This document shows positions 1,474 to 31,624 of a stretch of DNA of 38,961 nt, piece after piece. A program made the position numbers and the translations under genes. A model generated the notes under the pieces. It had not been told where the DNA came from and did not search any database. It saw only the letters and a list, made by a program, of their open reading frames with translations. The stretch lies in contig CAYJRR010000030.1 of the NCBI GenBank assembly GCA_964372275.1, positions 1-38,961 of the forward strand. Reading direction: 5' to 3'. This DNA comes from an uncultured bacterium. GTDB taxonomy: Bacteria; CAYJRR01. Positions within the stretch are counted from its first letter, which is position 1, and every line of letters starts with the position of its first letter.

Positions 1474-2394
1474 GTGCTTCAACTCCAGGTCGCACTCTTC
1501 TTGCTGTTCGCCTATCTGCTCTTGGCCGTTGGGGTCTTCCTCTTCATTCGCCTGCTCTTCCCCGAGGAGGAGGCGGCCGGAGCGAAGAAGCGTCTCGGCG
1601 TCGGCGGCGTCCGGACCGTTACCCCCTCCCTGGTGATGCGGATCACGCGGCCGCTGGCGGTGATGCTCACGCCGCTCACCCAGAACATCAAGGCGGAGAA
1701 GTACCGGGCGAAGGTGCGGCGCGGCTTCGTCAGCGCCGGGATGACCGACGAGATGACCCCCGACGAGTTCTTCGGGTGGAAGATCGTGATGGGGACCTTC
1801 CTGTTCCTCTTCGTCGCCAACACCGTCGGCGGCATCTGGGACCTTCCCTGGTACGTCCACATCGGCGTCTACCTGGTCGGCTTCTTCTATCCCGACATCT
1901 GGCTCAAGGGGATGATCGGCCGGCGGCAGAAGAAGATCCTCCGCGCGCTCCCCTACGTGATGGACCTGCTCACGCTCTCGGTGGAGGCGGGGCTCGACTT
2001 CGTCTCCGGGATCGCCAAGGTGACGGAGAAGGCCAAACCCGGACCGCTGGTGGAGGAGCTCGCCTTCTACCTGCACGAGACGCAGATCGGCACCACGCGC
2101 TCGCAGGCGCTGCGGAACATGGCCTACCGCATCAACTTGCCGCAGATCAGCTCGTTCGCCGCGCTCCTGGTCCAGGCCGACCAGCTCGGGGCGTCGATCG
2201 GCCCGGTGCTCCGCGCGCAGTCCGACCTGCTGCGCGCCCAGCGCTTCCAGGCGGCGGAGAAGGCGGGTGCCGCCGCGACGCAGAAGCTCCTCTTTCCGCT
2301 CGTGCTCTGCATCATGCCCGCGGTCTTCATCGTGATCTTCGGGCCGATCCTGCTGAACTTCATCTACGGCACCGGCGTCATCGGGGGCGGCTAG
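1474..2394 (+). CDS. tadC: T2SSF-domain inner-membrane platform protein, TadC/TadB-like
   Basis: A 306-aa product with TM helices and a GspF/T2SSF-type domain (ALPYVMDLLTLSVEAGLDFVSGIAKV... LPQISSFAALLVQADQLGASIGPVLRAQSDLLR). GTG start preceded by GGAAAGG. It is a second platform paralog, located ~18 kb away from tadB at 20488. Confidence 0.75.
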   Translation: MLQLQVALFLLFAYLLLAVGVFLFIRLLFPEEEAAGAKKRLGVGGVRTVTPSLVMRITRPLAVMLTPLTQNIKAEKYRAKVRRGFVSAGMTDEMTPDEFFGWKIVMGTFLFLFVANTVGGIWDLPWYVHIGVYLVGFFYPDIWLKGMIGRRQKKILRALPYVMDLLTLSVEAGLDFVSGIAKVTEKAKPGPLVEELAFYLHETQIGTTRSQALRNMAYRINLPQISSFAALLVQADQLGASIGPVLRAQSDLLRAQRFQAAEKAGAAATQKLLFPLVLCIMPAVFIVIFGPILLNFIYGTGVIGGG

Positions 2395-2404
2395 GAGGAA
2401 TCCC

Positions 2405-2749
2405 GTGACCTTCCGTAACCGGACGCGCGGAATGGTGCTCTCCGATCGGACGCGGGTGGCCGACCGGCTCGTGAGCCGCATGGTCGGCCTGCTGGCCACC
2501 GACCGGCTCGAAGACGGCGAGGGCCTGTGGATCGAGCCGTGCACGTCGATCCACACCTGGTTCATGCGGTTCCCGATCGACGCCCTGTTCCTCGACGACG
2601 GGGGCCGCGTGGTGAAGCTGGTGCGCACGATGAAGCCCTGGAGACTGACCTCGATCGCCCGCCGGGCCCGTGGTGTCCTCGAGCTCCCCGCCGGGACGCT
2701 CGACCGGACCGGGACGTCGGTCGGAGACGAGGTCGAGCGGACGGCATGA
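2405..2749 (+). CDS. DUF192 (COG1430) family protein
   Basis: A 114-aa product carrying LWIEPCTSIHTWFMRFPIDALFLD...GTL, characteristic of DUF192. GGAGGA lies upstream of the GTG start. The 3' end overlaps the next gene in an ATGA junction. Confidence 0.65.
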   Translation: MTFRNRTRGMVLSDRTRVADRLVSRMVGLLATDRLEDGEGLWIEPCTSIHTWFMRFPIDALFLDDGGRVVKLVRTMKPWRLTSIARRARGVLELPAGTLDRTGTSVGDEVERTA

Positions 2750-4461
2750 CGGCCAAGCTCGTCATCGTCGAAGGTCCGCAGCGCGGCCGGGAGTTCCCCT
2801 TGCGGGAGGGGGAGAACGTCGTCGGCCGCACGTCGGAGACGCCGATCGAGCTGGCGTCGAACAAGGTTTCGCGACGCCACGCCACGATCCACCTGACGAA
2901 CGGGCGGGTCGAGGTGGAGGACCTGGGCTCGGCGAACGGGACGTTCGTCAACGGCAAACAGGTCACGCGCGCGCCGGTGCCGGCCGGGTCGAAGATCCTG
3001 GTCGGCGACTTCGTCTTGCAAGTGGTCAACGGCGGCGGCGCGGCGCGCCCGGCCGGCGCGCCGGCGCGACCGGTGACCGGGGGAGTTCCGGCGGGTCCCC
3101 GCACCGGGCCGGTCGCCGCCACGCGGCCGGTCCAGGGGAACGCGGTCAAGAAGACCGGCAAGGCGGTGATGGTCGTCAACCCGCAGCAACGGCCGGGCGC
3201 GACGAAGCGGCCGGCACGGGCGGCGGCGCCGGTCAGCGTGCCGAGCGAAGGGGCGAAGAAGGCGGCGGACCGGATCGTCGCCCGCATCGGCGGACTTCCC
3301 TGGCGATCGCAAGTGGTGGTGATCGTCGTCGCGCTCTCGGCCGCGCTGATGCTGGCGGTGACCTACGTCATCAGCAAGGCGAAGAGCGACTACCAGAAGC
3401 TGGCGACCCGGCACGCCGTCACGATCGCCAAACAGATCGCCGCGCAGAACGCCATCTACCTGGCGACCAAGGAGAACCTCCAGCTCAACGTCGACGTGGA
3501 GGAGACCGAGCTGGGGGTGAAGGACGCGCAGATCGTCGGCGCCGACGGTCAGATCAAGTACCCCAAGACCCTCCTCGGGAACCTGCAAGAGGCCCCGATT
3601 GTCCAAGAGGCGTTGGCGTTGAAGGACTTCTCGGTGGTGATGAAGCCGAGCGCGGACAACCCGGAGTGGGTCGACATCGCCGTGCCGGTGTTGTTCTACA
3701 ACGCCAACTCGGCGAAGTTCGACCAGGTGGGGGCGGTACTGATCACCTACGCGCCGGTCGAGGTGACGAAGAGGGCCACCCAGGCGGGTTGGCTCTACGG
3801 CGTGTCGGCCTTCCTGCTGCTCGTCGCCGGCGGCGCCGGAGCCTACTTGCTGATGCGGTCGACCGAATCGGCGGTGCAACGGGTCCAGGAGGACACCGAG
3901 CTTCTCGCCCGCGGCGACCTGCAGCAGATTGCGAGCCCGATCAAGATGCGCGAGATCGAGGCGCTGGTCCATTCGATCAATCGCCTGTTCCAGAAAGCGG
4001 GGGCGATGCGGTCCACGGCCGACCCGGCTTCCGCCGCGCACCCGGTCGCGTCCGCGCCGATGCTGGCGCTTCCGGCGCAGGTCGGACCCGTGGGGAACGC
4101 CGGCTCCGACGCGATCGTGCGCGCGCTGGTCGAGGCGATCGAGGACGCGGCGATCGTCGTCGACGCCGACAGCAAGGTGGTCGAGGTGAACAAGGCCGCC
4201 GAGCGGATGTTCGGCCTCGTTCCCGCAAAGGTGCGGGGGAAGCACCTGCTCGAGGCGATCACCGAGAAGCAGCTGCTGAACGACGTGCTCGATCTCCTGA
4301 ACGAGATCGCCGCGGCGCCGGAAGGGGTGGTCACGCGCGCGCTGGAGGTTCCGGGGCCCGACGGGCCGAAGCCGGGACACGTCTCGGCGGCCGGCGTCCG
4401 GCAGGGTAACGAGCTGGTCGGATCGGCGATCGTCATCTCCGCACGGGGTGACGCTTCGTGA
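2746..4461 (+). CDS. Membrane sensor protein with the domain order FHA, TM, periplasmic region, TM, HAMP-like, PAS
   Basis: N-terminal FHA domain (LVIVEGPQRGREFPL...VVGR...NKVSRRHATIHL...VEDLGSANGTFVNG). A Pro/Ala linker follows. Two TM segments (VVVIVVALSAALMLAVTYVI; WLYGVSAFLLLVAGGAGAYLLM). Then a HAMP-like helix and a C-terminal PAS-like fold (IVRALVEAIEDAAIVVDADSKVVEVNKAAERMFG...). The real start is the ATG at 2746, in frame with the track ORF 2527..4461. Confidence 0.75.
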   Translation: MTAKLVIVEGPQRGREFPLREGENVVGRTSETPIELASNKVSRRHATIHLTNGRVEVEDLGSANGTFVNGKQVTRAPVPAGSKILVGDFVLQVVNGGGAARPAGAPARPVTGGVPAGPRTGPVAATRPVQGNAVKKTGKAVMVVNPQQRPGATKRPARAAAPVSVPSEGAKKAADRIVARIGGLPWRSQVVVIVVALSAALMLAVTYVISKAKSDYQKLATRHAVTIAKQIAAQNAIYLATKENLQLNVDVEETELGVKDAQIVGADGQIKYPKTLLGNLQEAPIVQEALALKDFSVVMKPSADNPEWVDIAVPVLFYNANSAKFDQVGAVLITYAPVEVTKRATQAGWLYGVSAFLLLVAGGAGAYLLMRSTESAVQRVQEDTELLARGDLQQIASPIKMREIEALVHSINRLFQKAGAMRSTADPASAAHPVASAPMLALPAQVGPVGNAGSDAIVRALVEAIEDAAIVVDADSKVVEVNKAAERMFGLVPAKVRGKHLLEAITEKQLLNDVLDLLNEIAAAPEGVVTRALEVPGPDGPKPGHVSAAGVRQGNELVGSAIVISARGDAS

Positions 4462-5525
4462 CGGGGAAGGCACGGTCATCCCTTCGGGGCGCCGGGAAGG
4501 ATCGAATGGGCGGTATGCCGCGCGCCACCGATCCGCGCAAGGCCTCGGCCTCGGCGGGTCCGATGCGGCTCCGCATCCTCGACGGACCGGAAGCGGGGAC
4601 GGAGTACGCCGTCACCGGGGAGCGGGTGAGCCTCGGACGCGGGGACGGGAACGACATCGTGCTGGTCGACGAGAACGCGTCGCGCAACCACGCCGAGCTG
4701 GTGATGGAGCGCGACGGCCGGTACCGCGTGCGCGACCTCGGGAGCCGTCACGGCGTGGTGGTCAACAAGCGCCGGGTGCAGGAGGCGGCGCTCGCGTCCG
4801 GCGATCGCCTGCGCATCGGCAGCACGACGGTCGAGGTCCGGATCGACGGCGCACCTGCGGCGGGCAGTCCCCTGGTACGGTGGCTCGCGGTCGGCGGCGT
4901 GGTGGTGGTGGCCGCCGTCCTCTTCCTGGCGATGCGGGGCGGGAAGGGTCCGGTGGTGGTGGGAAATTCCGGGGCGCGTACGGTCGGCAGCGCCGCTCCG
5001 GCCCCGTCCGTCGCGGCGGCGGCGCCGGTCGTTCCGCGCGATCCCAACAGCATCTCCCTGGGGAGTCTCTTGAGTCCCGCCGCCTCCGCGCCGGCCAAAG
5101 GGGTGGAGGTCGGCCGCAACGCGAACACCCGTCCGGTCGGGGTCCCTCCTCCGACGGCGGCGACGATCAAGTCGAGCCCGGCGGACGTCGCGGCGGCGGC
5201 GGCGCTGATCGCCGAAGCCGACCGGAGCCTGGGAAGCGGACGCCTGTCGGACGCCCGCGAACAGATCGCCCGGGCGATCCGGATCGACCCCTCGTGCGAG
5301 CGTTGCGTCGCCAAGCTCGCCGGCGTCGAGGCGACGATCAAGAAGCAGATCGAGGACGCCTTCGCCGCCGGCAGGAAGTACCTCGACACGGCCCGCTACC
5401 AGGACGCCATCAACCAGTTCCAGAAGGTGAAACTGTTGGATCCCGATCCGGCCTCGATCAATAATGGGAACGCGAGCCGGCTGATCCAGGAGGCGCAGAC
5501 GCTGAAGGCGCAGAGCGGCCGATAG
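4458..5525 (+). CDS. FHA-domain membrane protein with a C-terminal TPR-like region
   Basis: FHA domain (LRILDGPEAGTEYAVTGERVSLGRGDGNDIVLVDENASRNHAELVMERDGRYRVRDLGSRHGVVVN). One TM helix (WLAVGGVVVVAAVLFLAM). A helical TPR-like tail follows. The GTG at 4458 overlaps the upstream stop (GTGA). An alternative ATG start is at 4506. Confidence 0.7.
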   Translation: MTGKARSSLRGAGKDRMGGMPRATDPRKASASAGPMRLRILDGPEAGTEYAVTGERVSLGRGDGNDIVLVDENASRNHAELVMERDGRYRVRDLGSRHGVVVNKRRVQEAALASGDRLRIGSTTVEVRIDGAPAAGSPLVRWLAVGGVVVVAAVLFLAMRGGKGPVVVGNSGARTVGSAAPAPSVAAAAPVVPRDPNSISLGSLLSPAASAPAKGVEVGRNANTRPVGVPPPTAATIKSSPADVAAAAALIAEADRSLGSGRLSDAREQIARAIRIDPSCERCVAKLAGVEATIKKQIEDAFAAGRKYLDTARYQDAINQFQKVKLLDPDPASINNGNASRLIQEAQTLKAQSGR

Positions 5526-5541
5526 GAAAGAGCCCTCCGGC

Positions 5542-7752
5542 ATGATCGAGTTGATCGTCAAGAAAGATGATCGCGAGATCAATCGCTACTTCCTTCCGCA
5601 GGGAATCACCACCCTCGGACGAGCGGAGGACAACGGAATCATCCTCGACGATTCCTGCGTCTCGCGCCGGCACGCCCAGATCAAGGTCGACGGCGCCAAG
5701 GTCCTGATCGAGGACATGAACTCCGGCAACGGCGTCTACCGGGGGGACGCCCGCATCGAGCAGCACGAGCTCGCCGACGGTGACGAGATCGTGATCGAGC
5801 CGTTCACGCTGCTCGTTCGCATGGACGCCGAGAAGGGGAGGGTCGCCGATTCGACGCGGCCCGTTCCGAGCGCCAATCGGCCGAGAAGCGAGCGCCTCGA
5901 TCCGCCGCCGCGCACCGCCCGGGAGCCGGGCGGGTCGGCCGCCGGCGGACCCCGCCTCGAGGTGCTTCGCGGGGCCGGGGGTCCGTACCTCCTGTCCGGC
6001 GACAGCATCGTTCTCGGTCGCTCGGACGAGGCGAAGATCACGCTCAAGGATCCGTCCTCCTCCCGCAAACACGCGATGATCGAGCGTTCGAACCGGGGCT
6101 GGACGGTCCGCGATCTGGGCAGCGCGAACGGGACCTACCTGAACGGTTCGGCGATCGGCGAGTCGCCGCTCGCCAACGGGGACGTCATCCTCATCGGGAA
6201 CACCGAGCTCCGCTTCATCGATCCGGAGGCGGTCGCCGACGACGATCCGGCGCCGCTTCCGTCCACCCGATCCGTCGCTGTCGACCGCGGGCGCGCCGCG
6301 GTCCTGAAGGACGAACCGGTCTGGGCGGACAGCGTCCGGGAGGCGGAGGCGGACGGTCTCACCGGGGCGGTCCACACCTCGGAGTTGTTCGAAGCGGGGG
6401 GCACCGCGGCCGGCGGCGATACGGAGCTGGGGGCGGCGGGGGCCGACGACGCGGGTGGGGTGGAGGACGAGGGCTATGCGGCGGACGGCGATCGCTCCAC
6501 CGCCGACTTCGGCTCGATCGACGCCACGGGGGCGGGCGACGCGTACGGGATGGAGCTGGAAGGGGTGGCGTTCCCCGGCGACGAGGTGCCGGAGTCGATC
6601 GTCGGGCGCTACATCTACTCGCTCAAGACCAATCGCCGTACCCAGTTGATCACCGGGTTGCTCGGATTCACCTTCGTGATGATCCTGATCGCGGGCAGCC
6701 GGGGGGGCGGTGGCGCGGGGGGAGCGGCCGTCGGGCCGCAAGTGCTCGACAAGCAGCAGAAGCTCACGCTGACCACCATGGAGGCCGCCCTGCGTCAGGC
6801 GCTGGGGGCGATCGATCCGTCCAAGCCGACGAAGGACTACGCGACGGCGTTCGAGTACTTCGGCCGGGTGCGGACGTTCGGCAGCACCGAGGAGATGAAA
6901 GAGGTCCGCGATGCGCAGGAGCTGGTGCGCACCGCGAACGAGAACATCTACACCCTGCACGAGGCGTTGCTCCTGGCCCGCCTGCGCGACGTCACGATGC
7001 GGGGCGCGGAACGGGATCGCGCCACGCAGGAGCGCTTCGATCGCTCGATGCGGGACGGGAAGGCCAACCTCGATGCGGCTCGCCGGCGGCGTTCGGTGGC
7101 CAGCTACGACGCGGCGCTACGCGCGTTCAACGACGTCCTCCAGATCGACCCCGAGAACGCCGAGATCAAGCAGCTGGTGGTCGCCGCCCGCTCCGAGCGC
7201 GGGAAGATCGCCGGTGAGATGTCGAAGGTCGCGAAGGCGGCGCTCGAGCGGAAGCAGAGGGCCACCTTCGACCAGGCGCAAGGCGCGATGGGCAAGCGAA
7301 CGGCGCGCGGCTACCTGGAAGCGATCCGTCTCTTCGAGCGGATGCTGCAGCAGGATCCGGGATACATGAGCGATCTGACCGGCCGGGCGTCGGCGGAGAT
7401 CGCCGCGGCGAAGAAGAAGCTGCGCGACTCGGCACGGCCGATCAAGGACAACGCGAAATCGGCGATCGCCCGGCAGGACTGGCTGACGGCGCGGGCCAAG
7501 CTGCGGCAGGCGCAGGCGACCGATCCGTACGACCTCTCCATTCCGGCGCAGTTGGAGGAGGTCCAGCAGGAGTGTCTCAAGAACGCGCGGCAACAGATCT
7601 CCGAGGCGAAGGCCTACAAGAACGTCGGGAACCCGGTCGAGGCGCGCAAATCGCTGGAGTTGGGCCTCCGCTACGCCGACGAAGAGAAGTACAAGGAGAA
7701 CCAGCAGATCCGCGAGCTCCTCAAGACGATCAGCCGCGAGAACGAGCGGTAG
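5542..7752 (+). CDS. Tandem-FHA membrane protein with a C-terminal TPR-like domain
   Basis: Two FHA domains (YFLPQGITTLGRAEDNGIILDDSCVSRRHAQIKVDG...IEDMNSGNGVY; YLLSGDSIVLGRSDEAKITLKDPSSSRKHAMIERSNRGWTVRDLGSANGTYLNG). An acidic low-complexity linker follows. One TM helix (LITGLLGFTFVMILIAG). A ~350-aa helical repeat region follows, paralogous to the tail of the previous gene. Confidence 0.8.
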   Translation: MIELIVKKDDREINRYFLPQGITTLGRAEDNGIILDDSCVSRRHAQIKVDGAKVLIEDMNSGNGVYRGDARIEQHELADGDEIVIEPFTLLVRMDAEKGRVADSTRPVPSANRPRSERLDPPPRTAREPGGSAAGGPRLEVLRGAGGPYLLSGDSIVLGRSDEAKITLKDPSSSRKHAMIERSNRGWTVRDLGSANGTYLNGSAIGESPLANGDVILIGNTELRFIDPEAVADDDPAPLPSTRSVAVDRGRAAVLKDEPVWADSVREAEADGLTGAVHTSELFEAGGTAAGGDTELGAAGADDAGGVEDEGYAADGDRSTADFGSIDATGAGDAYGMELEGVAFPGDEVPESIVGRYIYSLKTNRRTQLITGLLGFTFVMILIAGSRGGGGAGGAAVGPQVLDKQQKLTLTTMEAALRQALGAIDPSKPTKDYATAFEYFGRVRTFGSTEEMKEVRDAQELVRTANENIYTLHEALLLARLRDVTMRGAERDRATQERFDRSMRDGKANLDAARRRRSVASYDAALRAFNDVLQIDPENAEIKQLVVAARSERGKIAGEMSKVAKAALERKQRATFDQAQGAMGKRTARGYLEAIRLFERMLQQDPGYMSDLTGRASAEIAAAKKKLRDSARPIKDNAKSAIARQDWLTARAKLRQAQATDPYDLSIPAQLEEVQQECLKNARQQISEAKAYKNVGNPVEARKSLELGLRYADEEKYKENQQIRELLKTISRENER

Positions 7753-7773: not shown

Positions 7774-9684
7774 TCACTTTCCGGCGCAGGTCGAGAAGAG
7801 GACGCCGAACAGGAACAGCACCGATCCTCCGGCGGCCAGCAGGAGGATCATCCCCATTCCGGGCTTGTCGTCCTCCTCGTCGACCGGCGCCGACGCCCTC
7901 TTCGATCGCTCGGCCGGTCGGCCTCGGCTCTGAGCGGCGGCCGCACGGCTCGGATTCGCGGCGGCGCGACCTTGACCGGAGGCCGCGGCGAGCGGCCGTC
8001 CCTTGGTCCCGTGGAGCGCTCGTTCGCGGGCGGCGCGGGTCGTGGCCGGCTCCGCGAGGCTCTCCTCGGACGACGGCTCGGCCGGCTGCGCGCCGCGGCG
8101 GCCCGGCGCCGCGCCGGCGGGCGCCTCGTGAGGGGCCTCGGCGCGAAGCGGGGAGGAGGACCGGCTCGATCCCGTTCGGAAACTGCTCCGGTCGGTGGTG
8201 AAGGTCGATTCGGAGGGTGACACCGCGGTGTCGCCGGAGTCGGAGGAGGCGGCATGGGGCCGGGTGCGTGACGGTTCGGCCGTCGGCATCTCGACGGAGA
8301 CCTCGCGCCGGACCTCCGCCGTGTCGCTCTCCATCTCCGGACCGATCGGGCGGGTCCGCGCCGTCGACCGGCTTTGGCGTTCCACCTCGATCGTCCGCTC
8401 GGCGCTGATCGGCTCGCCCGTCGACGGCGTGATCAGGACGGGAGCCGTCTTTTTCTCCACCACCCGCCCGCTGCCCGGGATCAGGACGCGGTTGATCTCC
8501 TCCTCGATGTTCTCCAGGGCGCCCGTTCCGAGCGTTCGCGAGGCGGAGCGTTCCTCCAGCACCGATTCCTGCGGATCGGCTGCCTGCGCCACGGCCGGCG
8601 TGTGTTCGCCCAGCTTCGACGCGATCTCGACCGAGAAGCTCTTTCCGAAGACCCGCGAGATCGACTGCCCCTCGCCGTCGGAGATGTCGAGGCGCAGCTT
8701 CCCGGAAGTCTTGTCGGCGTCGGAGAGGACGTCGACCCGGATCTCCTCGGAGAAAACCGACTTCATGAACGCCGCGAGGTTGCTGGTGGTGAAGTTGAAG
8801 GTCGACGAATAGAAGAACCGGGTCAGCTCGTCTTTGAGCTCGGTCGCGGTCTGGTAGCGATCGCCGGGCTCCTTGGCCAGCGCCTTGAGGACGATGTTCT
8901 CCAGCTTCTTGGGGATGCTCTTGTTGTACTTCGACGGCGGTTCGACCTTCGCCTCGCGCACCCGCTCCAGGATCGACAGATCGCTCTCGCCACGGAACGG
9001 CTTCTTCTCGGTCAGCATCTCGTAGAGGACGATGCCGGTGGAGAAGATGTCGGTGCGGCGGTCGACAGCGAGTCCGGAGGCCTGCTCCGGGCTCATGTAT
9101 TCGTACTTCCCCTTCACCACGCCGGCTTCGGTCTCCCGGATGTTGACCGTCGCCTTGGCGATCCCGAAGTCGGTGATCTTGACCTCCCCCTCGTAGCTGA
9201 TCATCACGTTCTGCGGGGAGACGTCGCGGTGGACGATGTTCATCTCCCGCGGGCCGGTGGAGGTCATCTCGGTCTTGGCGTGCGCGTACTCCAGCCCCTT
9301 GCAGACCTCGATGGTGACGAAGACGGCGTGCTGGATGAACAGCGGCATCCCGATCTGATCGCATCGGGACATGAGGGCCCGGAGGTCCTTCCCCTCGATG
9401 TACTCCATCGCGATGAAGTAGCTGTCTTCGATCTTCCCGAGGTCGTAGATCTGCACGATGTTGGCGTGGCTCAACATCACGGCGATCTTCGCCTCGTTGA
9501 TGAGCATGTCGATGAAGTCCTTGTTCTCGCTCAGGTGCGGAAGGATCCGCTTGATGGCGAGGTACTTCTCGAAGCCGCCGACCCCCTTCGTCCGGGTCTT
9601 GAAGATCTCCGCCATCCCGCCGACGGCGATCTTTTCGAGAAGCTCGTACTTCCCGAAGGGGATGATCTTGGGTTCGCGTCCCAT
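7774..9684 (-). CDS. Hanks-type Ser/Thr protein kinase, tail-anchored
   Basis: Kinase subdomains are present: GxGxxA (IAVGGMAEIF), the VAIK-like AIKRI, HRDVSPQNVM and DFGIAK. A ~250-aa Ser/Arg/Ala/Pro-rich disordered region follows. A hydrophobic segment closes the protein at the extreme C-terminus (MGMILLLAAGGSVLFLFGVLFST). Confidence 0.9.
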   Translation of the reverse strand: MGREPKIIPFGKYELLEKIAVGGMAEIFKTRTKGVGGFEKYLAIKRILPHLSENKDFIDMLINEAKIAVMLSHANIVQIYDLGKIEDSYFIAMEYIEGKDLRALMSRCDQIGMPLFIQHAVFVTIEVCKGLEYAHAKTEMTSTGPREMNIVHRDVSPQNVMISYEGEVKITDFGIAKATVNIRETEAGVVKGKYEYMSPEQASGLAVDRRTDIFSTGIVLYEMLTEKKPFRGESDLSILERVREAKVEPPSKYNKSIPKKLENIVLKALAKEPGDRYQTATELKDELTRFFYSSTFNFTTSNLAAFMKSVFSEEIRVDVLSDADKTSGKLRLDISDGEGQSISRVFGKSFSVEIASKLGEHTPAVAQAADPQESVLEERSASRTLGTGALENIEEEINRVLIPGSGRVVEKKTAPVLITPSTGEPISAERTIEVERQSRSTARTRPIGPEMESDTAEVRREVSVEMPTAEPSRTRPHAASSDSGDTAVSPSESTFTTDRSSFRTGSSRSSSPLRAEAPHEAPAGAAPGRRGAQPAEPSSEESLAEPATTRAARERALHGTKGRPLAAASGQGRAAANPSRAAAAQSRGRPAERSKRASAPVDEEDDKPGMGMILLLAAGGSVLFLFGVLFSTCAGK

Positions 9685-9930
9685 TCGCGGGCCCCTTGCG
9701 GGAACGGCTGGCGTTCCCGGCGCGCTTTCTCGAAAGCGCGCGAGTTCGCGGAGTTAGTATACCCGTGTGCGGCGGGGTCGGAAAAAGGACCGGTCTTCCA
9801 GCATCGATGGGGCGGCGGGCGTACTTTTTCGCGACAAATGCGCCGCAGCCGGCCCTCGAAGGGTCCGCAGTCCATTCGCAACCGCCCGGATTTCCAGGTG
9901 GGAGGCGGCGTCGCGCGGGGTCGAACCCCG

Positions 9931-9946
9931 TGGCACGCCACCTGCA
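9931..9946 (+). promoter_or_regulatory. Sigma-54 (-24/-12) promoter candidate for flp1
   Basis: TGGCACG-ccac-CTGCA matches the TGGCAC-N5-TTGCA consensus with one mismatch and correct GG/GC spacing. It lies ~27 nt upstream of a GAGGGA RBS and the flp1 GTG. Confidence 0.5.
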
Positions 9947-9972
9947 CAACTCCGACGACGAGGGACGACACC

Positions 9973-10170
9973 GTGAGACGATTTCTTCGAGACGAATCGG
10001 GACAAACCGCGACGGAGTACATGCTGATCATCTCCGTGGTGGTGATCGCCATCGTGGCCGCCGCCTACGTCTACCTTCCGCAGTTCCAGCAGGGCGTCGC
10101 CTCGCTGGCGAACGACGTCAGCACGATCCTGGACGACGGCTGCATCAACCGGAACTGCACGCGAAACTAG
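9973..10170 (+). CDS. flp: Flp/Fap prepilin, paralog 1
   Basis: A 65-aa product. The leader ends in G, followed by the QTATEY Flp motif (G/XXXXEY). A hydrophobic helix follows (MLIISVVVIAIVAAAYVYL). The C-terminal tail carries two Cys residues (CINRNC). The start is in frame with the track ORF ending at 10170. Confidence 0.8.
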   Translation: MRRFLRDESGQTATEYMLIISVVVIAIVAAAYVYLPQFQQGVASLANDVSTILDDGCINRNCTRN

Positions 10171-10196: not shown

Positions 10197-10376
10197 ATGG
10201 GCCGACGGAAGAACGCGCGAGGCCAGGCGGCGGTCGAGTACCTGCTCGCGATCTCGGTCATCGTGGTCGCGGTGGCGGCCGCCTTCTACAGCATCCTGCA
10301 GGACCGGAACGGCAACCAGCGACTGGGCAAGGCGTTCGAGAACGCGCGCAACGTCGTCGAAGCGCCCTACCCGTAA
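10197..10376 (+). CDS. flp: Flp prepilin, paralog 2
   Basis: A 59-aa product: MGRRKNARG/QAAVEYLLAISVIVVAVAAAFYSIL. It starts 26 nt after flp1, so it is probably co-transcribed. Confidence 0.8.
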   Translation: MGRRKNARGQAAVEYLLAISVIVVAVAAAFYSILQDRNGNQRLGKAFENARNVVEAPYP

Positions 10377-10395: not shown

Positions 10396-10884
10396 TTGAC
10401 CGGCATGGTCGCGCTCTCCGCCCTCGCCCTCGCGGTTTCGGTCCTCGCGACCGTGACCGACCTCCTCGAACGGAAGATCTTCAACTGGCTGACTCTGCCG
10501 GCGCTGGGGCTCGGCGTCGCGCTGCACGCCACCCCCGGCGCGGCGCCGTGGTGGACGGGGCTCGCCGGATCGCTCGCGGTCGGTCTCCCCTTCTTCGTCC
10601 TCTACGCAACCGGGGTGATGAAGCCGGGGGATGTGAAGCTCTTGATGGCGCTCGGGGCGATCCTCGGTCCACGGCAAGGGATCGAGATCGGCGTGGCGTC
10701 GATCATGCTGCACGGACCGATCAGTCTCGCGCTCCTGGTCGGGCACCGCCGACTCGGAAATCTGCTCGCGATGTGGCGCGCGGGATGGAGCTCCGACCGG
10801 GCGCTGCTGGCCCCCTACGGATTCTCGATCGCGCTGGCGGTCTTCGGATCGGTCGCCTATCACCTGGCCGGCCGGTCCGGCTGA
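10396..10884 (+). CDS. tadV: Prepilin peptidase (A24 family), CpaA/TadV-like
   Basis: A 162-aa polytopic membrane protein carrying DLLERKIFNWLTLPAL and a second acidic-residue region, typical of CpaA/TadV. It sits directly after the two flp genes. A TTG start is at 10396; an ATG alternative is at 10405. Confidence 0.75.
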   Translation: MTGMVALSALALAVSVLATVTDLLERKIFNWLTLPALGLGVALHATPGAAPWWTGLAGSLAVGLPFFVLYATGVMKPGDVKLLMALGAILGPRQGIEIGVASIMLHGPISLALLVGHRRLGNLLAMWRAGWSSDRALLAPYGFSIALAVFGSVAYHLAGRSG

Positions 10885-12623
10885 GGCGACACCGCGCCGA
10901 GCAGCAACGGGTGGACCTCCTCCGGCAGGAGCGTGCCGAGCTCCTTTCCGGGCGGAAAGGCCGGCCCCCGAGCGAAGAGCACACCATCGCCCGAATGCCA
11001 GTTGCCGAACAGCGCGTTCTCCTGGCGCGCCATCCCGTGGTCGCCGATCACCAGCGTGGTGGTCCGCTCGTCGCCGGGCTCGAGGAGCCATGCGATCTTG
11101 CGATCGAACCGGTTCAGGTACGCCGCCATGAACGGCGCGAGACGTTTCGAGTCGTCCGGCGAGAACCCGGGCACCTGCCCCCGTTCGTCGGGAAGGAGGA
11201 CGTGCGCCGTCAGGTCGACCCCTTCGAAGTAGACCGCCAGGACGGACGGCTGCCGATCGTCGCGAAGGTGGCGCGCCGCCTCCCCGCACGACTGGGTGTT
11301 CAACCAGCCGTAATAGGCGTTCGAGAAGGCGTGGGTGCGCGCCGATTCCACCGTTCCGACCGCCTGCCGCTCGACGAACGCGGCGATCTCCTCGTCGCGG
11401 AGCGGTACCAGGTTCACCAGCTCCGGATCGGGCGGCTCCCCGGCGGCGCGCCGGAACGGCGCGATCCGGGACTCCGTTTCGGCGGGCCAGACGAGGTGCT
11501 CCTCCTCCGCGCGGTAGTGGAAGAGGAGCTCGGTCTTCGACGGAGCCCATCGATCGGAGACGTTGACCCCCGACACCGGCTCCACCGGCCAGGTCGCGGG
11601 CCAGCAGACGAGGCCGATCCGGCCCAGCGCCGGCAGCTTCCAGAACGGCGTCCCGCGGCGGTGCAACCGCGTGGCGGGAAGGATCGAGATCCAGCCGGCG
11701 CGCCAGGCCCCGAGCAGGGGGACGGCGAGCAGCCCCGAGACCGGGTCGGTGTAGAGTCGGTCGACGGGGATCGTTCCGAACGCCGGATCGTTGACGAAGA
11801 ACTCGAAGTTCGAGATCCGGTGCTTCGACGGCGGTAGCCCGGTGGCGATCGAGGTCCAGATCCCGGACGACAGTTGCGGAGGCGCGCTTCGCACCGAACC
11901 GACCGCCGCCGATGCCGCGAATCGCGAGAGGGCCGGCATCTCGTCCGCGTAGGTCCGAACGAGATCGAGCCCCAGACCGTCGATCGCGACGACGACCAGC
12001 CGCGGAAACGGAGCCGCCTCGGCAACGCCGGCGGCGTCGATGCCGTCGTCCCCTCGAGCCGGCCCTTGTCCCGTGAAGAGGGCCGCCACGACGAGGAGCG
12101 CCGCGGTGCCGCCGGCGAAGGGCCCCGCCTTCGCCGGGCTCGCGGAGAGGCGATCGACCCATCGGCTCGCCAGCCGCGCGCAGAGGACGGCGGCGGCGAT
12201 GCCGACGAGCGGCGCGACGAGCAGACGGACGTTCGACACGCCGCTCAACAGCCCGACCTGACGTCCGGTCCACCGGACCAGCGCGAAGACCGCTCCTCCG
12301 GCGGCAAGCAGCGGAGGGAGCACGAGGAAGAGCCCTTCGACGAACGATGCCAACTCGGTGCGCGCGGGGATCCGTTTCCGGCGGCGGTGAAGGTGGAGGA
12401 GCGCGGCCGGGATCGAGGCGACGGCGCCGGCGACGACCGCCGCGAGGATCGTCGCGGCCGGGGGGATCGCGTCGATTCGAAGGGCCGCGATCACCGTGTA
12501 GCCGGCGCCCACCAGACCCGAGCCGGCGACCGCCCACCGAGCGCTTCCCGCCATCTTTGGCTCGCACTCTACCACCGGCAGCCCGCGTCGCGCCGGGGGC
12601 AGAGAATCCCCCAAACGCGACAA
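10860..12623 (-). CDS. Membrane-anchored alkaline-phosphatase-superfamily enzyme (type I phosphodiesterase / nucleotide pyrophosphatase-like)
   Basis: About four to five N-terminal TM helices. The catalytic domain has the metal-site motif VVVAIDGLGLDLV near its start and LVIGDHGM near its end. It is convergent with tadV, with overlapping 3' ends. The likely start is M at 12555 (MAGSARWAV...). Confidence 0.7.
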   Translation of the reverse strand: MSRLGDSLPPARRGLPVVECEPKMAGSARWAVAGSGLVGAGYTVIAALRIDAIPPAATILAAVVAGAVASIPAALLHLHRRRKRIPARTELASFVEGLFLVLPPLLAAGGAVFALVRWTGRQVGLLSGVSNVRLLVAPLVGIAAAVLCARLASRWVDRLSASPAKAGPFAGGTAALLVVAALFTGQGPARGDDGIDAAGVAEAAPFPRLVVVAIDGLGLDLVRTYADEMPALSRFAASAAVGSVRSAPPQLSSGIWTSIATGLPPSKHRISNFEFFVNDPAFGTIPVDRLYTDPVSGLLAVPLLGAWRAGWISILPATRLHRRGTPFWKLPALGRIGLVCWPATWPVEPVSGVNVSDRWAPSKTELLFHYRAEEEHLVWPAETESRIAPFRRAAGEPPDPELVNLVPLRDEEIAAFVERQAVGTVESARTHAFSNAYYGWLNTQSCGEAARHLRDDRQPSVLAVYFEGVDLTAHVLLPDERGQVPGFSPDDSKRLAPFMAAYLNRFDRKIAWLLEPGDERTTTLVIGDHGMARQENALFGNWHSGDGVLFARGPAFPPGKELGTLLPEEVHPLLLGAVSPQPDRPAR

Positions 12624-12715
12624 TTCCTCCTCAGGGCGGTCGAAGGGGTCCGGGCCCGTCCTTCAACCATTTGCCGTAGAAGGGAAATTTTCGGCGAGGC
12701 GCAGGCGGCGTCGGG

Positions 12716-12731
12716 TGGCACGTCGGCTGCA
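12716..12731 (+). promoter_or_regulatory. Sigma-54 promoter candidate for flp3
   Basis: TGGCACG-tcgg-CTGCA has the same spacing and the same single mismatch as the flp1 site. Confidence 0.5.
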
Positions 12732-12806: not shown

Positions 12807-13013
12807 ATGATCAAGAACTTCCTTCGCAACGAAGAGGGCCAGACGGCGACCGAGTACATGCTCATCATTTCGGTCGTGGTCATCGCGATCGTTGCCGCCG
12901 CCTATGCGTTCCTTCCGCAGTTCCAGGCCGGCGTGCAGGCGCTCGCCAGCGACGTGAAGACGATCCTGTCGGGCGGCAACATCGGCGGGTCCGGCGTCCA
13001 GCGCAACAACTGA
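12807..13013 (+). CDS. flp: Flp prepilin, paralog 3
   Basis: A 68-aa product: MIKNFLRNEEG/QTATEYMLIISVVVIAIVAAAYAFL, with a Gly-rich tail (SGGNIGGSGVQRNN). The ATG is in frame with the track ORF ending at 13013. Confidence 0.8.
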   Translation: MIKNFLRNEEGQTATEYMLIISVVVIAIVAAAYAFLPQFQAGVQALASDVKTILSGGNIGGSGVQRNN

Positions 13014-13037
13014 TCGATTTTCGAGAGAGGGGAGGGA

Positions 13038-13080
13038 GGGTCGGCGCACCGAAAGGGCGCGCCGACCCTGCCTTCGTTTC
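13038..13080 (+). terminator. Stem-loop (10-bp GC stem) followed by a T-rich tract, after flp3. Possible partial terminator or attenuator
   Basis: GGGTCGGCGC - loop - GCGCCGACCC, followed by TGCCTTCGTTTCC. The flp4 GTG follows only ~15 nt later, so read-through probably continues. Confidence 0.35.
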
Positions 13081-13094
13081 CGGGAGGTCGGGCG

Positions 13095-13307
13095 GTGCGG
13101 CGTCGTCTCGAACACAGAGCGAGATCGCGGACCGGTCAGACGGTGACGGAGTACCTCCTCGTCATCACCGTATTCGTGATCGCGATCGCCGCCGTGGTCT
13201 ACGACCCGATCGCCGCCGCCTTCCTCGACGGGACCGACGGTTTCTACAAGACCGCGGTGCAGGGCGCGGAGACCGGCGGCTACGACGTGACGAACGGACA
13301 GCGGTAG
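13095..13307 (+). CDS. flp: Flp prepilin, paralog 4
   Basis: A 70-aa product: VRRRLEHRARSRTG/QTVTEYLLVITVFVIAIAAVVY. GTG start. Confidence 0.75.
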   Translation: MRRRLEHRARSRTGQTVTEYLLVITVFVIAIAAVVYDPIAAAFLDGTDGFYKTAVQGAETGGYDVTNGQR

Positions 13308-13313
13308 CCCGAT

Positions 13314-13535
13314 CTACTGTCCGCGAGGGGCCGGTCCGCCGTAGCTGTCGTCGGCGAACCATCGCTCGAAGTCGGCCATGAAGGCGTCGATCCCCTGCTG
13401 GAGCGGCGGATAGAACTCGTAGCCGGCCGCCACCACCGCCAGCACGATCACGCTGATCGCCAGCATGTATTCGGTCGACGCCTGACCGCGATTCCGGCCG
13501 AATCGCCGCCCGAGCCGCCGAAAAGGGATTCGCAT
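13314..13535 (-). CDS. flp: Flp prepilin, paralog 5 (minus strand)
   Basis: The C-terminal 73 aa of track ORF 13314..13931 read MRIPFRRLGRRFGRNRG/QASTEYMLAISVIVLAVVAAGYEFY. The upstream part of that ORF is Arg-rich junk. It is convergent with flp4, with only 6 nt between the stop codons. Confidence 0.7.
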   Translation of the reverse strand: MRIPFRRLGRRFGRNRGQASTEYMLAISVIVLAVVAAGYEFYPPLQQGIDAFMADFERWFADDSYGGPAPRGQ

Positions 13536-15957: not shown

Positions 15958-16785
15958 GTGAAGAACCGTCGTGCCCTGATCTATTCGGTGCTCTGCGCGT
16001 TCTTCGCGATGCTGTTCCAGTGCTCCTACATCAGCAAGAAAGAACGCCTTCTCCAGGGCGACTACGAACCGATCAAGGTGATGGTCGCCAAGAAGAACAT
16101 CCCCAAAGACTTCAAGCTCGACGAGACGATGGTCGAGTTCGTCGACATCCCCAAGAAGTACGTCCAGCCGAAAGCGCTCAAGGACCTCAACGAGATCCTG
16201 GGGCAGATCTCCGGCTCCACCATCTTCCAGGGGGAGCAGATCATCGCCACCAAGCTGCTCTCGATCGAGGACGCGGGGCTGGCGTTCAAGGTGCCGAAGA
16301 ACTTCCGCGCCTTCACCATCGCCGTCGACGATGTTTCGGGCGTCGGCGGGCACGTCCGGCCGGGGAACTACATCGACCTGATGGGGATCTTCGACTTCGG
16401 CGATGAGCGGAAGTCCGACCAGCGCGCGGTGACGCTCCTCCAGAACGTCTACGTCCTCGCCGCCGGCGGCGACCTCGGACAGGCGGTCCCGTTCAACGCC
16501 TCGAGCGATGACGTGGAACGGATCAACGAGATCGTGCGTCAGAAGGACGAGAAGAACTACCGTGGCTACCGGAACGTGACGCTCATGCTGACCGCCGAGG
16601 AGGCCCAGAAGGTGATGTTGGCCCAGGAGGTCGGTTCCTTGAGCCTCACGCTGCGCTCCCTGTGGGAGGGGAACACGCAGCTCCCTCTCGACAAGGTGTC
16701 GGTCAACAGCGCGGTCGGCATCCCCGAGAAGGTCTACCGCCGGCCGCGGGCATCGTATCGGGAGATTCGCGCAGGGAGCTACTAG
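15958..16785 (+). CDS. cpaB: Flp pilus assembly protein CpaB/RcpC
   Basis: A 275-aa product. N-terminal TM anchor, then SAF-like and RcpC-like regions (KVPKNFRAFTIAVDDVSGVGGHVRPGNYIDLMG... VTLLQNVYVLAAGGD). Confidence 0.85.
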   Translation: MKNRRALIYSVLCAFFAMLFQCSYISKKERLLQGDYEPIKVMVAKKNIPKDFKLDETMVEFVDIPKKYVQPKALKDLNEILGQISGSTIFQGEQIIATKLLSIEDAGLAFKVPKNFRAFTIAVDDVSGVGGHVRPGNYIDLMGIFDFGDERKSDQRAVTLLQNVYVLAAGGDLGQAVPFNASSDDVERINEIVRQKDEKNYRGYRNVTLMLTAEEAQKVMLAQEVGSLSLTLRSLWEGNTQLPLDKVSVNSAVGIPEKVYRRPRASYREIRAGSY

Positions 16786-16804: not shown

Positions 16805-18256
16805 TTGGAGCGGGCGCGTCGGGCGGTTCGGGAGATCCTCGCGGCGGCCGCGACCGCGGCGCTGGTGATCGTGGTCGCGCCCGCGGCCGCCCGAGCGGCC
16901 GAAGAGGTGGTGATCGTCGTCGGGAAGCAGGTGACGGTGAACATCCCGTTCCCGATCGGCAGCGGTGCCAACTCCAACCCCGAAGTGGTGCAGGCGGTGG
17001 TCGATCCCCAGAGCCGACGGATCATCTTCTTCGGCCGTCGGGTCGGTTCCGCCAGCTACGTGGTGTTCGACGCTCGCAGCCGCACCAACCGCAAGGAGTA
17101 CGACATCCGCGTCGTCGGAGAGGACCTGGCGCGGATCCGCGACAACCTGCAGCGGCAGATCGGCGACATCGAAGGGGTCGAGGTCAAGCTGCAAGGGGAC
17201 CAGGTGATCGTCGAGGGGGACGTGGCCCTGGAGTCGGAGCTGCAGCGGATCGAGAAGCTGACGCTCAATCGTCCGAACATCCAGAACCTGGTGCGCCTCT
17301 CGCCGTTGGCGATCAAGGCGACCGCCCGCACCATCCAGCAGGCGATCGACCGCCCGGAGGTCACCGCCCGGCCGCTGAAGGACAAGATCCTCCTGGAAGG
17401 GGACGTCTACTCCGACGAGCAGAAGACGCGGGCGGAGATGATCGCCACCACGCTCTTCTCCAACATCGTCAACGTCATCGAGGTGAAGCAGGTGCCGCGG
17501 CCGCCGAGCCGCGCCAAGACGATCGTGCTCAACACCCACTTCCTGGAGCTGTCCAAGGAGATGCTCGACACCTGGAGCATCAACTGGGGGACGGTGGCGC
17601 TCTCCGAGAGCGGGCTGCAGGCCTTCTTCCAGATGGACCTGGTCAACGGCGAGTTCGTCGGCGACTTCAACACCACCATCTCGGGAACGATCTCGGCCTT
17701 CCTCCCCAAGCTCGACCGCGCCAAGCCGGAAGGGGTGGTGCGGACGCTGGCCAATCCGGTGATCACCACCAAGGACGGCGAGGCGGCGTCGATCTTCACC
17801 GGGGCCACCGTCCCGTTCATCGTCGGCGTCGCGGCGAACGGAACGCCGATCGTCGATTTCAAGGACGTCGGGATCTCCCTCAACGCCACCCCCTTCGCGC
17901 AAGGGGACAGCGTCGACCTGAAGATGACCGTCGAGGCCAGCGACGTCGGGAACGTCGACCTGGCGAGCGACCAGACCGGCATCCTGAAGTCGACCTTCTC
18001 CTGCTCCCAGTTCGTCCGCGCCGGGGAAAGCGTGGCGATCGGCGGACTGTTCCGCGTCGGCGATAACGTCGTCTACAACAAGCCGGTCAACGCGCGGCAG
18101 TTCGAGGACTCGATCTTCCGGCTGTTCCTCTCGCGCTCCTACCAGAAGCGCAAGGGGCAGTTCATCGTCTTCATCACGCCGACCGTCCACGACGAGAGCA
18201 GCAGCGCCAACCGCGAGATGAAGGACGTCTTCAACCTGCAGGAAGTCGGCCAGTAG
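16805..18256 (+). CDS. cpaC: Tad secretin CpaC/RcpA
   Basis: Signal peptide, then N-terminal secretin-associated domains, then a C-terminal secretin domain (VRTLANPVITTKDGEAASIFTGATVPF...GILKSTFSCSQFVRAGESVAIGGLFR). Confidence 0.85.
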   Translation: MERARRAVREILAAAATAALVIVVAPAAARAAEEVVIVVGKQVTVNIPFPIGSGANSNPEVVQAVVDPQSRRIIFFGRRVGSASYVVFDARSRTNRKEYDIRVVGEDLARIRDNLQRQIGDIEGVEVKLQGDQVIVEGDVALESELQRIEKLTLNRPNIQNLVRLSPLAIKATARTIQQAIDRPEVTARPLKDKILLEGDVYSDEQKTRAEMIATTLFSNIVNVIEVKQVPRPPSRAKTIVLNTHFLELSKEMLDTWSINWGTVALSESGLQAFFQMDLVNGEFVGDFNTTISGTISAFLPKLDRAKPEGVVRTLANPVITTKDGEAASIFTGATVPFIVGVAANGTPIVDFKDVGISLNATPFAQGDSVDLKMTVEASDVGNVDLASDQTGILKSTFSCSQFVRAGESVAIGGLFRVGDNVVYNKPVNARQFEDSIFRLFLSRSYQKRKGQFIVFITPTVHDESSSANREMKDVFNLQEVGQ

Positions 18257-20487: not shown

Positions 20488-21390
20488 GTGATCCTTCGCA
20501 TCGTCTCCAGCGCGATCCTGGGGGTCGCGGCGTTCCTGTTCGTCGTCGGCTCCTACGAATGGTTCGCGCGGCGCCTGCGCGAGGCCACCACCGAATACGT
20601 CGCCTGGATGGTGACGATGTTCGACCGGATGTTCCTCACCGTCACCGCGCGGCAGTGCGTGATCCTGATCGCCGCCAGCACCGTCGGGACCGGGCTGATC
20701 ATGTTCTGGCTCACCGGGGCGTTGAGCGGAGCGACCTGGAAGTGGTTCATCCGGCTCCTCATCATCGGCGTGGCGATGAAGGGACCGTGGATCTTCCCCA
20801 TGGGCTGGTCGCTGCCGCGGAGGATCGTCAACTGGATGTGGCGGCGGCGGGTGAACAAGTTCGACGAGCAGATGCTCGACGGGCTGACCTTCCTCGCGAA
20901 CTCGATGAAGTCGGGGCTGTCGCTGCTGCAGGCGATCGACATGATCGTGCAGGAGCTCCCGAACCCGCTCTCGCAGGAGTGGGCGCTGGTATTGAGTCAG
21001 CAGAAGCTCGGGGTGCGGATCGACGAGGCCCTCGACAACCTGGAGAAGCGGATCGGCTCCGAGGACATCCAGATCGTCTGCACCAGCATCGGCATCCTCC
21101 GCGAGTCGGGCGGCAACCTGGCCGAGGTGTTCGACACCATCGCCTACACCATGCGCGAGCGGCGGAAGGTGGAGGGGAAGATCTCGGCGATGACGGCCCA
21201 GGGGGTGATGCAGGGGATCATCATCATGGCGATGCCGTTCGTCCTGGCGGCCGTCCTCTACGCCATGGATCCGGTCCTGATCGCCCGGTTGTGGCAGACG
21301 GTGCTCGGATGGGTCCTCCTGATCATGATGATGACCCTCCAGTTCGTGGGCGGGTACATCATCAAGAAGGTCGTGACCATCGAGGTCTAG
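20488..21390 (+). CDS. tadB: T2SSF-domain platform protein TadB
   Basis: A 300-aa polytopic membrane protein with the T2SSF domain (LDGLTFLANSMKSGLSLLQAIDMIV...). GTG start preceded by GGAGGAGG. Confidence 0.85.
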   Translation: MILRIVSSAILGVAAFLFVVGSYEWFARRLREATTEYVAWMVTMFDRMFLTVTARQCVILIAASTVGTGLIMFWLTGALSGATWKWFIRLLIIGVAMKGPWIFPMGWSLPRRIVNWMWRRRVNKFDEQMLDGLTFLANSMKSGLSLLQAIDMIVQELPNPLSQEWALVLSQQKLGVRIDEALDNLEKRIGSEDIQIVCTSIGILRESGGNLAEVFDTIAYTMRERRKVEGKISAMTAQGVMQGIIIMAMPFVLAAVLYAMDPVLIARLWQTVLGWVLLIMMMTLQFVGGYIIKKVVTIEV

Positions 21391-25016: not shown

Positions 25017-25056
25017 CGGACCTCCGGGCGTGGCGGCGAAGAGGGAGGCAGAGGCT

Positions 25057-25072
25057 GCAACGGAGGTGCCAC
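25057..25072 (-). promoter_or_regulatory. Sigma-54 promoter, perfect match to the TGGCAC-N5-TTGCA consensus, driving the MYXO-CTERM protein gene
   Basis: The minus strand reads TGGCAC-ctccg-TTGCA, ~40 nt upstream of the ATG at 25016. Confidence 0.55.
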
Positions 25073-26752: not shown

Positions 26753-26783
26753 CAGCGGCCCTCCTCGAGACGGTGGCGACGCG

Positions 26784-27362: not shown

Positions 27363-27433
27363 GAAGACCCCGCAGGATAGCGAAGCGGTCGGGGGAGGTA
27401 AACGAGCGTGCCGCCGGGGTATACTGCGTAGTC

Positions 27434-28537: not shown

Positions 28538-28540
28538 TCC

Positions 28541-30969: not shown

Positions 30970-30975
30970 CGGTGG

Positions 30976-31284: not shown

Positions 31285-31295
31285 CGGGACGGACC

Positions 31296-31610: not shown

Positions 31611-31624
31611 TGTCGTTCGTCCCT

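Follow-up and report, generated by a model that had tools for sequence, protein, structure and literature searches.

The locus described here raised two questions: whether a set of Flp pilin genes in an uncultured bacterium is transcribed from promoters of the σ54 (RpoN) type and, if so, which kind of enhancer-binding protein activates them. The genes are carried by contig CAYJRR010000030.1 of assembly GCA_964372275.1, a stretch of 38,961 nt that was analyzed over its whole length and is called the window below; it has a G+C content of 69% and contains one Tad/Flp pilus locus, as judged by Pfam annotation. A preliminary description had pointed to a TGGCACG-N4-CTGCA element in front of each of two pilin genes, flp1 and flp3, and had read both elements as σ54 promoters. 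The motif, its position, and its conservation in orthologs supported that reading. Both elements are probably genuine σ54 promoters that are combined with an upstream enhancer and drive the flp1-flp2(-cpaA) and flp3(-flp4) units. The dependence on σ54, the start sites, the role of the upstream element, and the identity of the activator are predictions of different strengths, as described below.

Both 16-mers, TGGCACGCCACCTGCA before flp1 and TGGCACGTCGGCTGCA before flp3, were located on the forward strand where the preliminary description had placed them (Table 1). In both, the GG is separated from the GC by 10 nt, which confirmed the claim of canonical σ54 spacing. The sequence TGGCACG-N4-CTGCA had exactly two matches on the two strands of the window, compared to a mean of 0.00 in 100 dinucleotide-preserving shuffles. 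When the broader pattern TGGCAC-N5-YTGCW was used and one mismatch was permitted, five matches were found (0.95 expected), and the three perfect matches were the two flp sites and a site on the minus strand (25071 to 25056). Relative to TGGCAC-N5-TTGCW, each flp element has one mismatch, in which C replaces the first T of TTGC. Both elements lie between genes, point toward the pilin gene, and are followed by a Shine-Dalgarno sequence ahead of the start codon. The distance to the pilin start, which had been put at 25 to 90 nt, was 26 nt for flp1 (GTG at 9973) and 75 nt for flp3 (the start being the ATG at 12807, not 12808).

In the mechanism that we propose, σ54-RNA polymerase would bind TGGCACG-N4-CTGCA and remain in a closed complex. 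Transcription would begin about 12 nt past the GC only upon the action of an AAA+ enhancer-binding protein. The predicted start of flp1 is near position 9957, which would leave about 16 nt of 5′ untranslated region (UTR), including GAGGGA at 9960-9965. The predicted start of flp3 is near position 12742, which would leave about 65 nt of 5′ UTR, including GAGGAG immediately before the ATG. The enhancer-binding protein, positioned at GCGACA-N6-YCSCAG about 100 nt upstream, would loop the DNA, contact σ54, and hydrolyze ATP, and the resulting transcripts would be flp1-flp2(-cpaA) and flp3. The flp2 gene lacks a separate promoter motif, and its cotranscription with flp1 is probable. Related loci showed the same pairing of a major flp gene and a second flp gene, with a σ54 site only before the first gene.

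Conservation was examined in Flp relatives that were gathered independently of the motif. Specifically, a search with Flp3 yielded 81 homologs, and a 42-sequence alignment (A1) was used to fetch 48 genome loci (L001 to L048) and 80 metagenome loci (L049 to L128), the latter partly duplicating the former; further loci were obtained via look-ups of the encoding contigs. In the genome loci, which comprised 974 kb of strand sequence, 28 sites matched TGGCAC-N5-TTGCA with no more than one mismatch. After 23 of these sites, the first flp gene followed at a distance of less than 100 nt; the background rate predicts about 0.03 such sites. Similar results were observed with the metagenome loci, in which 21 of 23 sites were that close to the first flp gene. 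The number of unique flp promoters with the motif was 63, and the distance between the motif and the start codon varied from about 20 to 90 nt. The preliminary description had made its reading depend on conservation of the motif upstream of flp orthologs, and conservation was what we observed in the genome loci, the metagenome loci, and the syntenic locus described next.

A sequence logo built from 35 unique sites read T-G-G-C-a-C-G-nnn-c-T-T-G-C-w, and the flanks stayed below 0.5 bit at every position. Position 7 was a G in 28 of the 35 sites; this position was outside the search pattern, and the G matches the σ54 consensus TGGCACG. Beyond the 16-mer, in both directions, the promoters of the relatives could not be aligned by eye. 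In the syntenic ortholog of the locus (L133), the genes are arranged in the same order as in the window (flp-flp-peptidase, a minus-strand gene, flp-flp, and TadG), with TGGCACATACCCTGCA at position 329 before the flp1 counterpart and CGGCACACCCGCTGCA at position 2418 before the flp3 counterpart. The closest clade, which has Flp proteins of the GQTATEYMLIIS type, retains CTGCA as its −12 element. In L065, which encodes a 73%-identical Flp protein, the 16-mer upstream of flp is identical to that of flp3. The same 16-mer was found in L136, which encodes an identical Flp3 and is probably from the same or a nearly identical organism.

One locus with a different arrangement was that of a Deltaproteobacteria metagenome-assembled genome (MAG; L027), in which two near-consensus σ54 sites are divergent, at positions 4969 (minus) and 5168 (plus), and the nearer one is about 800 nt upstream of flp.

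The preliminary description had recommended a search for activator sites about 80 to 150 bp upstream of the promoters. This search turned up a conserved GCGACA-type element at −99 or −100 from the TGG in the window and similar elements in the relatives, and the site is a putative one that was recognized by its sequence. CGCGACAAWT matches the window at the two flp promoters and nowhere else (0.05 matches expected). The extended form, GCGACA-N6-YCSCAG, is found in the nearest clade as one copy that is always in the GCGACA orientation, and GCGACA was present in this orientation in all 12 closest-clade promoters with enough upstream sequence. When 7-mers were counted in the 195 nt upstream of 35 promoters, CGCGACA/TGTCGCG was found in 17 (1.2 in the control), TGCGACA in 16 (0.4 in the control), and TGGGACA in 11 (0.7 in the control). 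Among the 63 unique promoters, 35 had GCGACA compared to 8% of control windows, and 58 had G[CG]GACA or TGTC[CG]C in the upstream 200 nt compared to 24% of control windows. The arrangement GACA-N4-TGTC was found in 11 of the 63 (0.6 expected). The starts of GCGACA cluster around −57, −79, −100, and −145 from the TGG with a few between, in steps of about 21 to 23 nt or about two helical turns, and in the relatives the element occurs on either strand. Because its position, spacing, and partial palindromy fit those of an enhancer-binding-protein site, we propose with moderate confidence that the GCGACA element serves as the activator (enhancer)-binding site.

Two other shared sequences were not retained as elements. 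An 11-mer, AGGCGGCGTCG, that had been noticed upstream of both promoters and presented with caution is real (9903-9913 and 12703-12713), and the caution was justified: a third copy lies inside the secretin gene (17781), and the 11-mer is absent from the orthologous promoters. The TCGAAGGG(G)TCCG block, which is shared by the two window promoters, was not conserved in the relatives.

Candidates for the activator came from the related loci. In L104, a Flp-like gene with a long C-terminal extension is directly followed by a gene for a protein with an FHA domain and a Sigma54_activat domain (including the GAFTGA and ESELFGH motifs), and this activator has close orthologs at 73 to 79% identity. The L135 activator has FHA, AAA+, and lid domains and a weak HTH_8 domain; the genes next to it are those for a CHASE2 protein, an extended Flp-like protein, and a CHASE2-Ser/Thr kinase. 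Upstream of the L135 Flp-like gene lies TGGCATGGGCGCTGCA, and 67 nt upstream of that lies TTTTTCGCGACA, a string that the window flp1 promoter also contains. The arrangement in L139 is the same as that in L135, and the contigs of L138 and L140 end too early to show the flp neighborhood. A more distant FHA-type activator is encoded in L141, where its gene is divergent from a Ser/Thr kinase gene.

The preliminary description had suggested that an FHA-type enhancer-binding protein might be involved. The FHA-Sigma54_activat genes that adjoin Flp-like genes in L104, L135, and L139 are circumstantial support for this idea; the window contains no such gene, and the σ54 AAA+ domain is absent from all three of its FHA proteins (2527 to 7752; Pfam). 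On the basis of guilt by association, we tentatively propose that an FHA-AAA+-HTH protein activates the window promoters. This identity would put pilin expression under Ser/Thr-kinase signaling. The Ser/Thr kinase gene of the window, whose position beside flp is kept in L129 to L132, would then be a possible source of the signal input.

Additional features of the activator loci were observed. The extended Flp-like prepilins (L104, 132-674; L135, 4402-4911; L139, 24-344) have a C-terminal extension of about 100 amino acids (aa) that is conserved (...RPCDGS.EALRYEAMF.PPPC...LSSARLGRRSRSR) and has no counterpart in the window. In L141 (3177-4059), the activator is followed by a σ54-like site, CGGCACGGCCTCTGCT, which is located 12 nt before a gene for a secreted protein with an HExxH-like motif (LVHELAHHFH). 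A scan match in L023 proved to be a TPR protein and was discarded as an activator.

Several observations weigh against the σ54 interpretation of the flp promoters. In the window, the −12 element is CTGCA and not TTGCA. Some related flp genes do not have a canonical site, and these fall into recognizable classes: operon-internal genes with an ATG that abuts an upstream stop codon (a large lake-metagenome clade); the second flp gene of a flp-flp pair; genes with TGGCACG-N4-TTGAA/TTGAT or TGGTAC-N5-TTGAA (L004, L011, L030, L075, L094, and L129); and genes with a σ70-like TATGCT (L019, L021, and L036). The loci are phylogenetically nonindependent, and the counts given above overstate the number of independent events. 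No enhancer-binding protein was found in the 39-kb window via Pfam annotation of 30 open reading frames or via six-frame scans for GAFTGA, ESELFGH, and GESGTGK, and six-frame scans of L001 to L128 found no activator within 6 kb of flp in 127 of 128 loci. The exception was L104, and the flp gene beside its activator has no recognizable σ54 site. Finally, L137 has an activator ortholog with no flp gene nearby.

As a separate observation on the TTGAA/TTGAT class, the −24 half is kept and the −12 GC is replaced by GA, which is unusual for σ54 promoters.

The σ54 promoters might be activated by a response regulator of the NtrC/PilR type or by another protein encoded elsewhere. The FHA protein would then be irrelevant, and the neighboring kinase and FHA genes would act only posttranslationally on pilus assembly. 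We consider this explanation possible, although short of probable. All of the documented σ54 pilin systems use response regulators, namely, PilR (Pseudomonas, Myxococcus, and Geobacter) and DVU2114 (PMC3333781, PMC4641369), and the FHA proteins of the Myxococcus Kil system have been proposed to act in assembly signaling (PMC8460266). An activator encoded elsewhere would also agree with the finding that none is encoded in the window, and the link between the FHA activator and flp consists of three contigs and an atypical, C-terminally extended Flp-like gene. On the other hand, motif scans found no receiver-domain enhancer-binding protein near any of about 140 loci, and only an FHA-type activator was found to adjoin a flp-like gene that shares the promoter and the GCGACA site with the window. 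Moreover, the FHA activator is repeatedly paired with Ser/Thr kinases and CHASE2 sensors. The window contains no response-regulator or Sigma54_activat gene and thus nothing of the PilS/PilR type.

If an FHA protein is the activator, a broader scheme can be drawn, which we regard as doubtful in its entirety. In this scheme, uncultured, mostly Myxococcota genomes would share a conserved module in which a Ser/Thr kinase (in some cases with CHASE2) signals via a phospho-partner to an FHA-AAA+-HTH activator, which in turn acts at GSGACA-N4-TGTCSC-type sites to control Flp pilins. The sites would be placed about two helical turns apart, upstream of the σ54 promoters of FHA-rich, Kil-like Tad machines. 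Eukaryote-like phospho-signaling, and not a two-component system, would in that case gate the supply of pilin to what may be a contact-dependent killing pilus.

It is improbable that the 16-mer is the operator of some other protein or an RNA/leader element and that flp is transcribed from an unrecognized promoter of the σ70 or extracytoplasmic function (ECF) type. The σ54 reading does rest on sequence, and in a few relatives TTGAA/TTGAT replaces the canonical −12 GC. No σ70-like promoter was found between 9600 and 13400, but the hexamers used in the scan were of the Escherichia coli type and may not describe the promoters of this phylum. In contrast, the pattern is exactly that of σ54, with an invariant GG and GC 10 nt apart, TGGCACG and TTGCW extensions, and a free 4-nt spacer. 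The variable distance to the start codon is a poor fit for a fixed leader RNA, the predicted fold of the flp3 5′ UTR was not significant (z, −0.13), and no Rfam family matched between 9500 and 13700.

Paralogy of the two pilin genes was considered as well. Their proteins are identical at 41 of 51 aligned residues, and the third codon position is identical at 23 of the 41 shared residues (0.40 by chance), which is near saturation. The 120 nt upstream of the two TGG sequences have an ungapped identity of 0.33, which is about random. Because the synonymous sites are nearly saturated and the upstream identity is random, these comparisons indicate that the likeness of the two promoters reflects selection and not recent duplication. 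A chance likeness, or ancestral upstream sequence left from the flp1/flp3 duplication, is therefore highly improbable: the genes are indeed paralogous and a window with 69% G+C favors G/C-rich words such as the shared 11-mer, but no chance matches are expected, and the recurrence of the motif in dozens of diverged orthologs already contradicts this explanation.

The features of the window are listed in Table 1.

Table 1. Promoter elements, candidate activator sites, and genes in the window
Feature	Position	Strand	Remarks
T2SSF platform gene	1474-2394		
FHA-PAS protein	2527-4461	+	Pfam
FHA-TPR protein	4458-5525	+	Pfam
2xFHA-TPR protein	5542-7752	+	Pfam
Ser/Thr protein kinase	7774-9684	-	Pkinase, E 2.4e-41; divergent from flp1
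Candidate upstream activator site GCGACAAATGCGCCGCAG	9831-9848	+	100 nt upstream of TGG; center about -117 from predicted start
flp1-operon σ54 element (predicted) TGGCACGCCACCTGCA	9931-9946	+	GG 9932-9933, GC 9944-9945
flp1, Flp-type pilin	9973-10170	+	65 aa (VRRFLRDESGQTATEYMLIISVVV...); GTG start
flp2, second Flp-like gene	10198-10376	+	Starts 27 nt past flp1
Prepilin peptidase, CpaA/TadV type	10396-10884	+	Peptidase_A24, E 6.4e-15
Phosphodiesterase/alkaline-phosphatase-family membrane protein	10860-12623	-	Between the two flp operons
Candidate upstream activator site GCGACAATTCCTCCTCAG	12617-12634	+	99 nt upstream of flp3-promoter TGG
flp3-operon σ54 element (predicted) TGGCACGTCGGCTGCA	12716-12731	+	
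flp3, Flp-type pilin	12807-13013	+	68 aa; ATG start; flp1 paralog
flp4, Flp-like gene	13095-13307	+	Downstream of flp3
Fifth Flp-like gene	13314-13535	-	
TadG/TadE-like genes			Listed between fifth Flp-like gene and CpaB/RcpC
CpaB/RcpC	15958-16785		
Secretin	16805-18256		
MinD/CpaE-like domain fused to CpaF/TadA ATPase	18259-20445		
Second T2SSF gene	20488-21390		
Amidase and PKD-domain protein			Downstream of pilus genes
EutN/CcmL vertex proteins (two)	26417-26821, 30976-31284		
Microcompartment shell proteins	26784-27491, 31625-32248		
Aldehyde dehydrogenase	29524-30969		

The products of flp1 and flp3 have the features of Flp/Tad (type IVc) prepilins: they are short (65 and 68 aa) and carry GQTATEYMLIISVVVIAIVAAAY. 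The flp1 product has the G/QTATEY prepilin motif and aligns with 41 homologs in A1. Neighboring genes encode Peptidase_A24, Tad/TadG-like, RcpC/CpaB, secretin, CpaE-CpaF-like ATPase, and T2SSF proteins, and the flp-peptidase gene order is the same in L129 to L134. PF04964 is annotated (precomputed) on some of the Flp homologs, and the NCBIfam models did not match the window Flp proteins. Nearly all loci with related Flp proteins are from MAGs; the specific labels are mostly Myxococcota or Deltaproteobacteria, and many loci are automatically labeled "uncultured Enterobacterales" or proteobacterium. The source genome is probably from the Myxococcota. Thus, the myxobacterial host that had been assumed is plausible from the labels of the relatives, although it is unproven and many labels differ.

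Several other features of the locus were observed. In the pilus ATPase, a MinD/CpaE-like P-loop domain at residues 9-250 is joined to the CpaF/TadA T2SSE domain, and the same fusion is found in L129 to L131. The gene slot between the two flp operons varies; in L133, it is occupied by a fatty-acid hydroxylase gene (1184-2173), and the promoters on either side are retained. The flp3 and flp4 genes are separated by a very stable hairpin (13011-13095; −53 kcal/mol; z, −6.4 versus shuffles), with a core of GGGTCGGCGC...GCGCCGACCC followed by TGCCTTCGTTTCC. This hairpin is probably either an attenuator/terminator that limits read-through into flp4 or a stabilizer of the pilin mRNA. The fifth Flp-like gene has a degenerate −24/−12 sequence, ATGTACGATTCTTGCT (13573 to 13558), with TG in place of GG, together with a well-matching upstream element, GCGACAACAACTCCGCAG (13665 to 13648); its promoter could be decayed, weak, or differently organized.

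The third perfect σ54 consensus site, TGGCACCTCCGTTGCA (25056-25071, minus strand), sits 39 nt before the ATG (25016) of the gene for the PKD-domain protein (23442-25016, minus strand), with GGAGG between. Because GCGACA is absent from this promoter and GGTCGCGATCGC is found about 80 to 85 nt upstream in its place, this promoter may respond to a different activator. A bacterial microcompartment cluster (25183-32248) that follows the pilus locus includes a class II aldolase gene.

Control of pilin genes by σ54 is of an already known kind, and a σ54 pilin promoter in this phylum is unsurprising. PilR-dependent σ54 promoters of pilA (type IVa pili) are established in Pseudomonas aeruginosa, Myxococcus xanthus, and Geobacter sulfurreducens, as cited in one report (PMC3333781). 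The window resembles these systems in that a major pilin would be expressed from a −24/−12 promoter with activator sites about 100 nt upstream, and in that the pilin gene is first in its unit and the assembly genes would be expressed separately. In contrast to the type IVa systems, the window pilins are of the Flp/Tad (type IVc) kind, a PilS/PilR pair is not nearby, and the candidate activator has an FHA domain and not the receiver domain of PilR.

The preliminary description had presented σ54 control of Flp pilins as a departure from their usual regulation. This part needs correction, as there is a precedent in Desulfovibrio vulgaris Hildenborough, in which DVU2114 is a σ54-dependent response regulator of Tad-type pilin genes and its target, DORF39640-DVU2116, is at the head of a cpa/tad-like cluster (PMC3333781, PMC4641369). 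DVU2114 differs from the arrangement proposed here because it is a two-component response regulator that is encoded beside its targets, and it belongs to another phylum. As far as the papers state, there are no FHA or Ser/Thr-kinase genes at the DVU2114 locus. Papers on Burkholderia and Pectobacterium name σ54 and Flp/Tad but show no direct σ54 control of flp, and a 2025 cross-phylum survey of σ54 regulons does not mention Flp/Tad.

The Kil system of M. xanthus is a Tad-like predation apparatus with many FHA proteins and several pilin genes, as described in the Kil papers (PMC8460266, PMC12075869). The likeness to the window is one of theme only, namely, a Tad-type machine with an unusual number of FHA proteins. 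The kil genes are in two clusters and KilF is an FHA-ATPase fusion, whereas the window has one cluster, and its ATPase is joined to a MinD/CpaE-like domain. Predation induces the kil genes; the searched text of these papers names no promoter or regulator, and a term search of that text returned no mention of σ54 control (PMC8460266, PMC12075869). With regard to the upstream element, the GlrR (QseF) sites at the σ54 promoters of glmY and glmZ have TGTC/GACA cores more than 100 bp upstream (PMC3045617). GlrR uses TGTC-N10-GACA, and this spacing was not enriched at the flp promoters (1 of 63), which favor GACA-N4-TGTC.

The analysis yielded three items that can be tested: a σ54 promoter class, a conserved 16- to 18-bp candidate enhancer, and a candidate FHA activator that is linked to kinases. 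If they are confirmed, the regulon would be predictable across genomes from the paired enhancer and −24/−12 signature, and gene expression would be linked to the numerous FHA and kinase genes that these loci contain. Relative to the known systems, the new twist is possibly an FHA/Ser-Thr-kinase input that replaces the two-component input, together with a family-wide enhancer motif. FHA-domain enhancer-binding proteins of M. xanthus are the subject of a 2005 article by Jelsbak, Givskov and Kaiser, whose title is cited in PMC12288465. These proteins were reportedly studied in connection with fruiting-body development. The candidate found in L104, L135, and L139 has the same FHA, σ54 AAA+, and HTH architecture, and it is by architecture alone that we liken it to those proteins.

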